DNA of 64,000 nucleotides. Source: an uncultured Acidobacteriota bacterium (GTDB lineage: Bacteria; Acidobacteriota; Vicinamibacteria; Vicinamibacterales; 2-12-FULL-66-21). Positions 1 through 64,000 of the stretch are shown one piece after another (the first letter of the stretch is position 1; every line of letters starts with the position of its first letter). The notes beneath the pieces were generated by a model, which was not told the origin of the DNA, ran no database searches, and saw only the letters and a program-made list of their open reading frames with translations. The translations under genes and the position numbers were made by a program. The DNA lies in NCBI GenBank assembly GCA_963764925.1, contig CAVXUR010000015.1, positions 57,576 to 121,575 on the forward strand, written 5' to 3'.

Positions 1-1
1 C

Positions 2-994
2 CCGATCAGCGAACGGGCGTCCAACGTCGTCGCGGCATCGCGTGCGGCGATTGCCAACGCGCTGAAGGGACAGGACCCGAGGCTCGTCGTGATCGCCGGG
101 CCCTGCTCCATCCACGACACGGCGGCGGCGCTCGAGTATGGCGAACGGCTGGCGCGCCTGGCGTCGCGGTATGCCGATCACCTGATCGTGGTCATGCGCA
201 CCTACTTCGAGAAGCCGCGCACCTCGGTTGGCTGGAAGGGACTCATCAACGACCCGGATCTGGACGAGAGCTTCCACATCAACAAGGGGCTCCGCCTGGC
301 GCGCAAACTGCTGCTCGACATCAACGATCTGGGGCTGCCAACGGCCTCCGAGTTCCTCGATATCCAGATTCCGCAGCACATCGCCGACCTGACATCGTGG
401 GTGGCGATCGGCGCGCGCACGACCGAGAGCCAGGTCCACCGCGAGCTCGCCTCGGGGTTGTCGATGCCAGTCGGCTTCAAGAACAGCACCGACGGCAGCG
501 TGAACACCGCGATCGATGCGGTGCTGGCGGCGCGCTCGGCGCACTGGTTCCCGTCGGTGACCAAGCAGGGCGTGTCGGCGATCTTCCAGACCTCGGGCAA
601 CGACGCCTGTCACGTGATCCTTCGCGGCGGGAAGCATTCAGGTCCGAACTTCGACGCGACACACGTGGGCGATGTGTCGGCGCGGCTCGCCAAGCAGGGA
701 CTGGCCGAGCGCGTGATGGTCGATTGTTCGCACGGTAACAGCGAAAAGGATCATCGCCGCCAACCACTCGTGGCCGCATCGATTTGTGAACAGATTCGGG
801 AAGGATCCGACCGGATCTTCGGCGTGATGCTGGAGAGCCACCTGGTCGAAGGCCGTCAGGACTACGTGCCTGGGCGCCCCGCGGTTTACGGGCAGAGCAT
901 CACGGATGCGTGCATCTCGCTCGATCAGACCGAGGACGTGCTGGAGCAGCTCGCGCATGCGCAGCAGGCCAGCGACGAGCACGTCAATCGCTGA
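2..994 (+). CDS. 3-deoxy-7-phosphoheptulonate (DAHP) synthase, class I (AroF/G/H type); 5' end outside window
   Basis: Frame is open from nt 2 (PISERASNVVAASRAAIANALKGQDPRLVVIAGPCSIHD...), so the ORF-track start at 89 is internal. Motifs KPRTSVGWKGLINDP, IGARTTESQVHRELASGLSMPVGFKN and DCSHGNS are typical of class I DAHP synthases. Stop at 992-994. Confidence 0.9.
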   Translation, partial: PISERASNVVAASRAAIANALKGQDPRLVVIAGPCSIHDTAAALEYGERLARLASRYADHLIVVMRTYFEKPRTSVGWKGLINDPDLDESFHINKGLRLARKLLLDINDLGLPTASEFLDIQIPQHIADLTSWVAIGARTTESQVHRELASGLSMPVGFKNSTDGSVNTAIDAVLAARSAHWFPSVTKQGVSAIFQTSGNDACHVILRGGKHSGPNFDATHVGDVSARLAKQGLAERVMVDCSHGNSEKDHRRQPLVAASICEQIREGSDRIFGVMLESHLVEGRQDYVPGRPAVYGQSITDACISLDQTEDVLEQLAHAQQASDEHVNR

Positions 995-1058
995 TTCTTG
1001 AAAAGCAATTGCGTTCCTTCATGAACAGCGCGTCGCATCGCCGGAGTGGAGGGACCGA

Positions 1059-2532
1059 GTGAAGGCTGCCTTATTCGTCTGCGTTGCCGCCCTTCTGACC
1101 ACCACCTGTGCGGCGCCAGGCGAGACCAAGAATACTGCCCCGCCCGCCCAACCGCGCCGCCCGAACATCGTCATGGTACTCGTCGACGACATGCGTTGGG
1201 ATGAGATGCGGGTCGCCGGCCATCCGTTCATCGACACGCCGAACATGGATCGGCTCGCGCGCGAGGGGGCGCGCTTCACGAACGCATTCGCGACAACGCC
1301 GCTCTGTTCTCCCAGCCGGGCGACCCTTCTTACCGGCCAGTATGCCCACACCAACGGCATCATCGACAACACCGCTCGACCAAGCCATAGCCTGCAGGTG
1401 TTCCCGTTGGAGTTGCAGCGCGCCGGCTACCGGTACTGGATTCTTCGGCAAGTGGCACATGGGCAACGACGACAGTCCTCGCCCGGGATTCGACCACTGG
1501 GTCGCGATGCCAGGCCAAGGCGAAGCGATCGACCCGCCACTGAATGTCGACGGCGCGCGGGTGCACGCGAAGGGTTACACGACCGACGTGCTCACAGACT
1601 ATGTCGAGCGGTTCATGGACCGTCCTTCGGATCGTCCGTTCCTCGTGTACCTGGCTCACAAGGCCGTCCATCCCAACGTGGTTCAGCGGGACGATGGGAG
1701 TCTCGGTTCAGTCTCAAATCAACCAGGAGGATTCGTGGCCGCCGAGCGCCACCGCGGTCGCTACGTCGGCCGCACCATGCCTCGTCGCGCGAATGCTTTC
1801 AAACCGCCGCTCGGGAAACCCGCGCTCCTTCGCCAGATTGACCAGATGCCTCCACTCGGCCCGAAGACCGCCACATCCGATGACGACATCAGGGGCCGCC
1901 TGGAGATGTTGCTCGCCGTCGACGACAGCTTGGGGCGGATCCTCGCGGCCCTCGAGCGCAAGGGCATACTGAATGACACGATGATCGTGTTTACCAGCGA
2001 CCACGGATACTTCTACGGCGAACACGGACTCAATGAAGAGCGGCGGCTGGCGTACGAAGAAACGATCCGTGTTCCGCTCGTCATCCGCTATCCACCGTTG
2101 ACGAAGGCGGGCTCGACACCGCCCGAGATGGCCCTAGGTCTCGACCTCGCTCCGACTCTACTCGAGGTGGCCGGACTCAAACCTGGTGCTGGCCTACAGG
2201 GCCGGTCCCTTGTGTCGGTGCTCAAGAACGAGGCACGGGACTGGCGCACGTCGTTCCTGATCGAGTACTTCACCGATACGGTGTTCCCGCGCATTCGGAA
2301 CATGGGTTACGTGGCGGCGCGAACCTCGCGGTACAAGTACATTACCTACCGCGAGCTTCAGGGGATGGACGAGCTCTACGATCTCGATACAGATCCCTAC
2401 GAAGAAACGAACATCATTGACCGTTCGGAGGCGCGCGAGACTCTTCAGAAGATGCAGGCGGAACTTCGTCGACTGATGGAAGAGTCCCGGTATACGGCGC
2501 CCGCGCCTGCCGTCAACACGGCGTTGCGGTAG
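1059..2532 (+). CDS. secreted sulfatase (arylsulfatase / N-acetylglucosamine-6-sulfatase-like), apparent +1 frameshift near 1435
   Basis: Signal peptide MKAALFVCVAALLTTTCAAP. Sulfatase signature PLCSPSRATLLTG (C-x-P-S-R formylglycine site) lies in ORF 1059..1841. The protein continues as TGFFGKWHMGNDDSPRPGFDHW...FTSDHGYFYGEHG in ORF 1108..2532. The junction reads GYR|TGFFGKWH at about nt 1435. Confidence 0.85.
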
Positions 2533-2575
2533 GCACCGACAGAGCCCGCAAGCTGCGCATCGCGAGCCCCACGCA

Positions 2576-63406: not shown

Positions 63407-63409
63407 CGT

Positions 63410-63617
63410 TCCGCTCCCTTTGGCAAAGCCTGCCACGAGCAAGGGCCATGCCCCGAACCAAGGGCTCCGTACCGTGGTTTCGTGGCGTTCGCAATCGGCT
63501 TCTTTCGCGCCAGGTGGTCGGTCGCGGGAAATATTGTCCGCTACCGGACGGCTCCGAGCAACGCTCGAGGGCCGCAGACTCGAGGTCAACAATCACTTTC
63601 TCCGACAGCATAGGCAT
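63410..63617 (-). pseudogene. possible decayed PadR-like regulator remnant upstream of ADOP copy 4
   Basis: One minus-strand frame reads GTIFPATDHLARKKPIANA, which mirrors the PadR core G-[ST]-[LI]-[YF]-P-A-L-H-R-L-E-x-x-G-x-I. The adjacent frame gives ..VIVDLESAALERCSEPSGSG.. There is no complete wHTH N-terminus and no single open frame. Confidence 0.3.
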
Positions 63618-63678
63618 ATTGATTTATACGATTTAAGACGATTTTACTATCGGTTAAGTCCGATCTACAGTGTCACTG

Positions 63679-64000
63679 ATGACCGCTTGGGCAGTGCGGG
63701 AACGGGAATGTGTGGTTCTGCTGTTGCTGTGTCTCTGGACGTGCGGCCTCGCGTCGCCCGCTGCGGCACAAGTCGGTGCCGGCGCGCTGACCGGCCAGGT
63801 TTCCGATCAAGCGGGTGCCGCCGTCTCTGGCGCGACCGTCACAATCGCTGCGGTCGGGACGAACCTGTCTCGCGCTACGTCGACCGATGCGGAAGGCCGC
63901 TACATCGTCTCTGGACTGGCGCCGGGCTCGTATCTCCTTCGGCTGGAGCTCAGCGGCTTCCGTCCGCTCACACGCGAAGGGATTCGTCTGACCACGGGGG
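63679..64000 (+). CDS. second CarboxypepD_reg-type TonB-dependent receptor, N-terminal fragment (3' end outside window)
   Basis: Not in the ORF track because it is open to the window end. ATG at 63679. MTAWAVRERECVVLLLLCLWTCGLASPAAAQVGAGALTGQVSDQAGAAVSGATVTIAAVGTNLSRATSTDAEGRYIVSGLAPGSYLLRLELSGFRPLTREGIRLTTG has the same domain pattern as 32500-32700. Confidence 0.8.
   Translation, partial: MTAWAVRERECVVLLLLCLWTCGLASPAAAQVGAGALTGQVSDQAGAAVSGATVTIAAVGTNLSRATSTDAEGRYIVSGLAPGSYLLRLELSGFRPLTREGIRLTTG

Follow-up and report, generated by a model that had tools for sequence, protein, structure and literature searches.

Single-base insertions that split 19 genes in a 64-kb Vicinamibacterales metagenome window are most probably consensus errors

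The stretch of DNA analyzed here, hereafter the window, comprises 64,000 nucleotides of an uncultured bacterium of the order Vicinamibacterales (Acidobacteriota): positions 57,576 to 121,575 of contig CAVXUR010000015.1 in GenBank assembly GCA_963764925.1. Within it, 19 protein-coding genes are broken by frame-breaking insertions and deletions (indels), which are the subject of this report. The window has a G+C content of 64% and a gene content typical of Vicinamibacterales, including ADOP-type duplicated permeases, a CarboxypepD_reg/OMP_b-brl_4 receptor, TPR and FG-GAP/ASPIC proteins, a PQQ dehydrogenase, and an O-antigen-like sugar cluster. The named matches obtained in protein searches are labeled “Vicinamibacterales bacterium.”

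The indels were listed from multiple DNA alignments of the window to syntenic contigs of its relatives. These relatives were gathered with three queries (the repaired receptor, the repaired ADOP3, and a radical-SAM protein) and by collecting contigs that carry proteins identical to intact window proteins. The repaired receptor translation retrieved intact orthologues of 1173-1185 amino acids (aa) at 92-95% identity, the repaired ADOP3 translation retrieved 811-aa orthologues, and the radical-SAM query, a chimera of radical SAM and PhyH that gave radical-SAM matches alone, retrieved proteins 98-99% identical. The closest relatives are sister contigs of three origins. L006, L091, and L096 are one contig, contig_16676 of ERZ25039541 (97.2-98.9% identity), which spans window positions 1-41.9 kb; L092 and L093 (98.2-98.3% identity, window 5-26 kb) and L094 and L095 (97.9-99.9% identity, window 44.5-64 kb) are from two samples other than that of contig_16676. 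Their combined coverage is 1-42 kb and 44.5-64 kb of the window. L001, L003, L004, and L088 served as more distant references (90-95% identity), together with the JGI contigs L002 and L005 (90-92% identity), for which a short-read origin was assumed. A codon-usage Viterbi segmentation, trained on long intact genes, had placed many frame switches inside single Pfam domains in a first pass and was later superseded by the DNA alignment, while a plot of third-position G+C by frame (GC3) was too noisy to locate junctions and was dropped. The kinase query found no close orthologue among the metagenome contigs: full-length matches had 30-44% identity, higher values came from the kinase domain alone, and these matches were used solely for a coarse tblastn frame check.

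The alignment to close relatives gives 47 frame-breaking indels inside 19 genes, against the roughly 45 to 50 frameshifts in 19 genes claimed by the first-pass annotation. The affected genes are listed below with their events (+, inserted base; -, missing base) and the state of their orthologues.

1060..2532, plus strand: sulfatase. +G at 1432, directly 5' of a GTAC; the Pfam Sulfatase domain runs over two frames. Intact at 490 aa in L006 (99.7% identical), without the G at 1432.
2598..3121, minus strand: hypothetical 171-aa gene. +G at 2651 compared with L006; its removal restores the open reading frame (ORF).
5493..7204, plus strand: trypsin-like protease. +C at 5835 and +G at 6571, splitting Pfam Trypsin_2. 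Intact at 569 aa in L006, L091, and L093, without both bases; one substitution in 569 codons compared with L006.
8703..9675, plus strand: family-2 glycosyltransferase. +C at 9432, which splits a GTAC; orthologue intact, 315 aa.
10243..10915, plus strand: hexapeptide acetyltransferase. +G at 10470; orthologue intact, 219 aa.
10920..11818, plus strand: hypothetical 299-aa gene. -1 after 11692, where L006, L091, and L093 have an additional G.
11819..12950, plus strand: DegT/DnrJ aminotransferase. +C at 11825 and +A at 12432; Pfam DegT profile positions 6-204 are read in one frame and 197-359 in another. Intact at 377 aa in the sister contigs; one substitution in 375 codons compared with L006.
12960..15011, plus strand: membrane protein, 683 aa. 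+C at 14152, at a GTAC; L091 and L093 have the intact 683-aa form.
16994..18506, minus strand: DMFA2_C (DUF6605-like) gene. +A at 17931, at a GTAC, splitting Pfam DMFA2_C. It has 503 aa and lacks the extra A in L088, L092, and L093; L091 has the same extra A, and its DMFA2_C call is truncated to 303 aa.
20041..22828, minus strand: Ser/Thr kinase with PD40 repeats. +T at 20569, 3 nt from a GTAC; tblastn matches change frame between 20573 and 20454. L091 and L093 have 928 aa and no extra T.
23801..26490, plus strand: ADOP1 permease. Two insertions, at 25643/4 and 25787/8; the repaired ORF has 906 codons, and the orthologue has 892 aa.
26483..26925, plus strand: small hypothetical ORF, a putative gene (147 aa in L096). 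-1 after 26550, where L096 and L001 have an additional base.
26940..28840, minus strand: PQQ-dependent dehydrogenase. +A at 27959 (also in L001) and +1 at 28373-28376. Intact at about 631 aa, without both bases, in L003, L088, L089, and L096.
29001..30597, plus strand: FG-GAP repeat protein. +1 at 30549/50, near the 3' end; the repaired ORF stops at 30597, in agreement with orthologues of 531-532 aa.
30818..32265, plus strand: flavin amine oxidase. Eight insertions, at 30856/7, 30914/5, 31348/9, 31546, 31752/3, 31911-14, 31952-55, and 32034; Pfam Amino_oxidase runs over frames f0, f1, f2, and f0 again. L001, L002, L005, and L096 have 475-480 aa and none of the inserted bases.
32434..35993, plus strand: TonB-dependent-receptor-like outer-membrane protein. 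Six events: +4 at 32485-32488, +1 at 32663-6, +1 at 33344-6, -1 at 34012, +1 at 34046-50, and -1 at 34836 (adjoining a GTAC); Pfam OMP_b-brl_4 is spread over five fragments.
36970..37879, plus strand: TPR protein, 302 aa. +C at 37123 and +G at 37411, neither of them in L005 or L096.
39537..40385, plus strand: TPR protein, 282 aa. +G at 39643-39650, not in L005 or L096.
50316..52764, plus strand: ADOP3 permease. Twelve insertions, at 50500, 50530/1, 50764, 50827, 51417/9, 51688, 52009/10, 52070, 52114, 52221, 52251, and 52671. Intact at 811 aa, without the inserted bases, in L003, L004, L094, and L095; the repaired window gene has 811 codons.

Insertions make up 43 of the 47 events (42 of a single base and one of 4 nt, at 32485-32488), and the other four are single-base deletions at 11692, 26550, 34012, and 34836 (43 versus 4, two-sided binomial p = 2.8e-9). 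The nearly pure +1 sign reported before is borne out, as are the runs of 8 events in the amine oxidase and 12 in ADOP3, all of them +1. The equivalent shift described on the minus strand corresponds to insertions in all three genes concerned (kinase, PQQ dehydrogenase, and DUF6605-like gene), and the four junctions flagged as odd, at about 11680, 26555, 34010, and 34840, are the four single-base deletions. A table of sign, position, and homopolymer context made from the alignments to relatives contains no balanced mix of +1 and -1 events. One further insertion lies outside this count:

47932, minus strand: Polbeta-type nucleotidyltransferase gene. +G five codons before the stop, not in L003, L004, L094, or L095; the orthologue has 317 aa and overlaps the uvrA start.

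Judged from these alignments, it is probably a 48th event.

The density of the 47 events is as uneven as the first-pass annotation had claimed, and its figures per segment are reproduced. There are 17 events in 1-30 kb (0.57/kb, one per 1.76 kb), 17 in 30.5-37.5 kb (2.4/kb, one per 0.41 kb; P(>=17) = 2.8e-5), one in 37.5-50.45 kb (P(<=1) = 7.8e-4), 12 in 50.45-52.7 kb (5.3/kb; P(>=12) = 1.9e-7), and none in 52.7-64 kb (P = 2.5e-4). Binned at 2 kb, the counts have a variance/mean ratio of 2.72 (dispersion p = 7.8e-7). Long genes that had been named as untouched (uvrA, 972 aa; ADOP2, 840; ADOP4, 809; and prolyl oligopeptidase, 716) all have full orthologue length.

Nearly all of the events are private to the window. 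Forty-six of the 47 are not found in the 97-99% identical sister contigs L006/L091/L096, L092, L093, L094, and L095, all of which stem from samples other than the window's, the sole exception being the insertion at 17931, which is present in L091 but not in L092 or L093. The JGI contigs L002 and L005 have zero frame-breaking indels over 30.8-42.2 kb. When the 47 events are undone, all 19 ORFs return to orthologue length with terminal stops only and no internal ones. The repaired genes have ratios of nonsynonymous to synonymous substitution rates (dN/dS) of 0.06-0.23, compared with 0.03-0.26 for the untouched genes; individual values are 0.06 for the amine oxidase, 0.09-0.12 for the receptor, 0.09-0.10 for ADOP3, 0.14 for DegT, 0.15 for ADOP1, and 0.11-0.19 for the PQQ dehydrogenase. 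Third codon positions account for most of the differences; in ADOP3, for example, the three positions have 46/20/194 differences (75% at the third), which is not expected if its 12 frameshifts were real. Compared with L006, the protease, DegT, and sulfatase genes have a combined 6 substitutions and 5 frameshifts, a ratio that is not natural.

The sequence context of the events is equally unusual. Only 7 of the 42 single-base insertions extend an adjacent identical base, whereas about 20 are expected (7 or fewer in 0 of 20,000 simulations). Of the 47 events, none touches a run of more than 3 bases, even though homopolymers of at least 5 bases occur 63 times in the window. Hence the earlier remark that some junctions sit in short C runs does not extend to a general rule. 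Homopolymer slippage, whether as an error mode or as a natural mutation mode, is ruled out by this run avoidance. On the plus strand, G was inserted 18 times, C 13 times, A 10 times, and T once; among the 42 single-base insertions there is an A:T asymmetry (p = 0.01) and a purine excess of 28:14 (p = 0.04).

It could be argued that the frameshifts are real and that this strain is undergoing gene decay with 19 pseudogenes, since the indels are truly present in the deposited sequence and two of them are shared with another contig (17931 with L091 and 27959 with L001). We consider this very unlikely. The 43:4 excess of insertions runs counter to the deletion bias seen in bacterial pseudogenes, which Mira, Ochman and Moran in 2001 and Kuo and Ochman in 2009 are said to have described. 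The 47 frameshifts are not accompanied by any nonsense codon, the repaired genes are as constrained as the intact ones, genes with 12 or 8 frameshifts show no relaxed constraint, and all of the genes are intact in relatives that are 97-99% identical. Natural single-base indels concentrate in homopolymers, which these events avoid. Taken together, the sign, the absence of nonsense codons, and the homopolymer avoidance are the opposite of natural indel mutation and pseudogene decay. A variant of this argument holds that the indels, or at least those of the two dense patches, stem from a recent, localized, insertion-only mutation process, too recent to have left a trace in dN/dS; this is, if anything, even harder to believe. 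Programmed or tolerated recoding, by ribosomal +1 frameshifting or transcriptional slippage, would account for the uniform sign of the shifts and for nothing else. Because the orthologues are read in a single frame without the extra base in every relative, the contexts are heterogeneous with no common slippery sequence, and up to 12 sites occur in one gene, its probability is practically nil.

Because near-identical sister assemblies have these genes intact, the frameshifts of the window are best regarded as consensus errors, and the genes should be annotated as intact. We thus propose, with a probability of roughly 0.93, that the frameshifts arose as errors in the consensus of a long-read metagenome assembly and that the organism's own genes are intact here. 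The technical origin that had been suspected at the outset is upheld by the absence of the indels from sister contigs, the restored ORFs, the normal dN/dS values, and the Nanopore-only character of the nearest relatives.

The last point concerns the provenance of the data. The closest relatives are either Nanopore metagenome-assembled genomes (MAGs) of the Microflora Danica (MFD) project (“MFD02242.bin...”, “MFD04850.bin...”, with contig_N names) or ENA contig_N assemblies, the latter all of one accession series (ERZ250394xx-395xx) with Flye-style contigs. The Microflora Danica long-read study assembled R10.4.1 Nanopore data using Flye with --meta --nano-hq and polished once with Medaka but not with short reads; its authors noted that coding density drops in low-coverage MAGs in association with Nanopore error (PMC12313526). 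Most probably, the window's assembly is likewise a Nanopore-only product of metaFlye and Medaka. Of 18 intact window proteins looked up in the protein collection, 15 have exact counterparts there, on a contig of NCBI and ENA. Near-finished R10.4 assemblies are reported to need about 40x depth (PMC9262707), and metaFlye assemblies of Oxford Nanopore (ONT) soil data contained 56.8% full-length proteins and 44 zero-coverage regions of more than 1 kb per 100 Mbp (PMC13087279). Several relatives have coding indels of their own. Unique insertions and deletions number 7/2 in L004, 4/2 in L001, and 3/3 in L003, so that L001 and L004 are insertion rich and L003 is balanced; the frameshifts affect uvrA, S9 peptidase, TerC, and ADOP4 in L003/L004 and ADOP1 in L001.

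Part of the events share a sequence motif. A GTAC lies within 2 nt of 8 of the 47 events, compared with 0.94 expected (P = 4e-6), and of 5 of the 18 events outside the two clusters. In a scan of 4-6-mers at the event sites, GTAC ranked first and no other motif was significant. Several indels of the relatives also adjoin GTAC (for example, L003 at 57655; L004 at 59468 and 61585). Moreover, some indels recur at the same site. The insertion at 17931 is common to the window and L091, base for base, and that at 27959 to the window and the more distant L001. Among other pairs, L001 and L088 have the same extra G at 24646 in ADOP1, where the window, L091, and L093 are in frame, and L003 and L004 lack one or two bases at 47147-47153, in a C-rich run of uvrA (CCCCTCCCCCG) at which the window's uvrA is intact; the latter is a homopolymer-type error common to two other assemblies. 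The GTAC association of eight events and the same-site recurrence in other assemblies point to a systematic component.

The shared sites also invite a different explanation, namely, that the insertions at 17931 (DMFA2_C) and 27959 (PQQ dehydrogenase) represent natural variation, with frameshift alleles that segregate in the population, and that only the others are errors. In favor of it, L091 has exactly the window's A at 17931 and yet not one other frame-breaking indel in 21 kb, and the window and L001 have the same base at the same site at 27959. However, single-nucleotide polymorphisms (SNPs) flanking 17931 do not group the window with L091, as L092 and L093, which lack the base, are just as close to the window, and the insertion at 27959 occurs in the distant L001 but not in the closer L096. 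Downstream of 27959, the PQQ dehydrogenase is strongly constrained between the two carriers (dN/dS 0.086 over 335 codons, window versus L001), which rules out an inherited pseudogene. Since 17931 also falls at a GTAC, a motif that is overrepresented around the events as a whole, and same-site indels are seen in the other pairs mentioned above, we think it unlikely that these two insertions are real.

How GTAC might lead to errors can be considered in light of the literature. Base modification causes systematic errors in R10.4.1-only assemblies, in the form of substitutions (PMC11610603; PMC11610573), and GTAC is a known bacterial methylation motif, as in Helicobacter pylori J99 (PMC10689673). 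GTAC may be methylated in this Vicinamibacterales lineage and thereby make R10.4.1 and Medaka add or drop a base, a suggestion that we hold tentatively and at below even odds. If true, the GTAC effect would be an indel-type modification error not yet described.

The two dense clusters differ from each other. The ADOP3 cluster coincides with a segment in which the window departs sharply from its closest relatives:

50000..53000, no strand assigned: divergent segment, about 2.8 kb, consisting of ADOP3 and its immediate flanks; it coincides with the ADOP3 error cluster.

Compared with L094/L095, each 500 nt of the window contains 31-63 mismatches (about 11%) between 50.5 and 53.0 kb but 0-6 between 45.5 and 50 kb, and at most 1 (L095) or 7 (L094) in 53-64 kb. 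All 12 ADOP3 insertions lie inside the divergent block. Given a dS of 0.37 and a dN/dS of 0.1 compared with L003, the block looks like a functional but much more distant allele. It would be either a recombinant allele carried by few cells or a segment of another strain threaded in by the assembler, and both would entail poor local read support.

The second cluster, at 30.5-37.5 kb, lies inside a 13-kb cassette (28.9-42.2 kb) that is missing from L003, and the read depth across this cassette could differ from that of the rest. The cassette (28900-42250) encodes an FG-GAP protein, the amine oxidase, the TonB-type receptor, four TPR proteins, and an FG-GAP/ASPIC protein. It is present in L001, L002, L005, and L096, while in L003 the PQQ dehydrogenase directly adjoins ADOP2; it appears to be an accessory island or a polymorphism of presence and absence.

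Across the window, frameshifts are associated with divergent tracts at ADOP3 and partly so at 9.4-10.5, 20.5, and 25.6 kb, but no such association was found for the amine-oxidase/receptor cluster or for nine events in near-identical tracts. Another possibility is that reads from two coexisting strains entered the same polishing and that the alternative bases of a SNP were retained next to each other, which would explain the insertion-only sign and the homopolymer avoidance. Indeed, the window has both alternative bases at 31911-15, 52009, 28373, 25644, and 34046-50, the inserted base is mostly unlike its neighbors, and the ADOP3 cluster attests to a second, divergent allele in the population. 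Yet the junctions are evenly spread over the codon (18 between positions 3 and 1, 12 between 1 and 2, and 11 between 2 and 3; chi-square of about 2.1, P of about 0.35), whereas strain SNPs are mostly at third positions. Only about 1 in 12 of the ADOP3 insertions adjoins a matching L094/L095 difference, and the sparse events fall in tracts that are nearly identical among all known strains. Such co-polishing is therefore an improbable source of the insertions.

We favor consensus error with two kinds of error superimposed. (i) A scattered background of single-base insertions, about 0.6/kb, would include a sequence-specific subset that lies beside GTAC and is found again at identical sites in other assemblies; this subset is consistent with errors that basecalling or polishing makes systematically, perhaps at a methylated motif. 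(ii) In the two dense patches, of 2-7 kb, polishing would have failed, most likely owing to very low local read support or to reads of a different strain. The first-pass annotation had held the clustering to be unlike uniform error. This remains valid, and part of the pattern now has an explanation: the divergent 2.8-kb segment for one cluster and the GTAC motif for a scattered subset.

Several points weigh against this interpretation. Classical Nanopore consensus errors are homopolymer indels, often deletions, whereas the events avoid homopolymers and are 91% insertions. The presumed error status rests on comparison with relatives rather than on reads, depths, or quality values. Sister contigs from this pipeline have far fewer events (0-3 per 16-21 kb), so that we must assume the window's contig to be unusually poorly supported. 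The amine-oxidase/receptor cluster is not divergent compared with L096, and the explanation offered for ADOP3 cannot be transferred to it. In the literature, we found no paper describing an insertion-only bias of metaFlye and Medaka, and methylation-linked errors appear there as substitutions, not as indels (PMC11610603).

Comparison with known systems likewise gives a mixed picture. (i) The window resembles the indel errors of Nanopore-only metagenomes, as seen in truncation tests of the IDEEL type: its single-base splits are missing from better-supported or short-read contigs, and the error level varies between contigs of one project, in keeping with the dependence on about 40x depth (PMC9262707) and with the strong truncation in metaFlye soil assemblies (PMC13087279). 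It differs from the classical error in homopolymer length not only in sign and context but also in that the events cluster at the scale of one to a few genes. (ii) Like R10.4.1 modification errors (PMC11610603, PMC11610573), the events are motif linked (GTAC, 8/47) and include the same site in independent assemblies (17931), but the published cases are C-to-T and G-to-A substitutions, and only about a sixth of the window's events fit. (iii) The ADOP3 patch, at about 2.8 kb and about 11% divergence with identical flanks and the worst error density, resembles zero-coverage or strain-chimeric metaFlye segments (PMC13087279). However, a real recombinant allele would look alike, and the cluster at 30.5-37.5 kb shows no divergence. 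(iv) As in bacterial pseudogenes and reductive decay, many genes are interrupted by frameshifts, but the insertion bias, the lack of nonsense mutations, the dN/dS values without relaxation, and the absence of the events from strains 97-99% identical set the window apart.

Left uncorrected, the 19 genes would be annotated as about 60 fragments or pseudogenes, among them the sulfatase, the PQQ dehydrogenase, the amine oxidase, the TonB-type receptor, and two ADOP permeases. In practice, the analysis yields a set of 47 (+1) corrections with repaired coordinates and the annotation of the 19 genes as intact. As an assembly artifact, the feature adds nothing new on the biology of the organism. It does show that a public long-read MAG can have local rates of 2-5 errors per kb beside stretches of at least 10 kb without a frame-breaking indel, patches that genome-wide quality scores hide. 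The signature (insertion-only, homopolymer-avoiding, partly GTAC-linked, and recurrent at the same site across assemblies) should be useful to those who build polishers.

The alignments also revealed variation outside the broken genes. Window-specific small indels in intergenic DNA, which may be error or natural variation, occur at 4390-4860, 19965, 23276, 23749-23784, 32265-32430, and 36899; examples are +2 at 4500; +1, -1, and -1 at 4691-4719; and -1 at 19965. Just downstream of ADOP3, at 52766-52838, there is a 7-nt tandem repeat (ACAGAAG, about 11 copies), the copy number of which varies in L003, L004, L094, and L095. Between PadR and ADOP1, a stretch of 48 nt is duplicated in tandem (1.9 copies) at 23708-23798, where the window is 14-47 nt longer than L001, L088, L091, and L093. 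Substitutions are unevenly distributed as well: compared with L006 (98.9% overall), 109 of 149 fall within tracts 1-1000 and 9000-10900, and similar hot spots compared with L091/L093 occur in the kinase region (20-21.5 kb) and at 23-23.5 kb. These hot spots look like a mosaic of recombination tracts among coexisting strains. Finally, L007 (ERZ25039531 contig_68184) has the same genes in a rearranged order, with radical SAM, YCII, rhomboid, YjbR, PadR, and ADOP1 together. It lacks the sugar-modification cluster (window 8-16 kb), which thus seems to be strain-variable.

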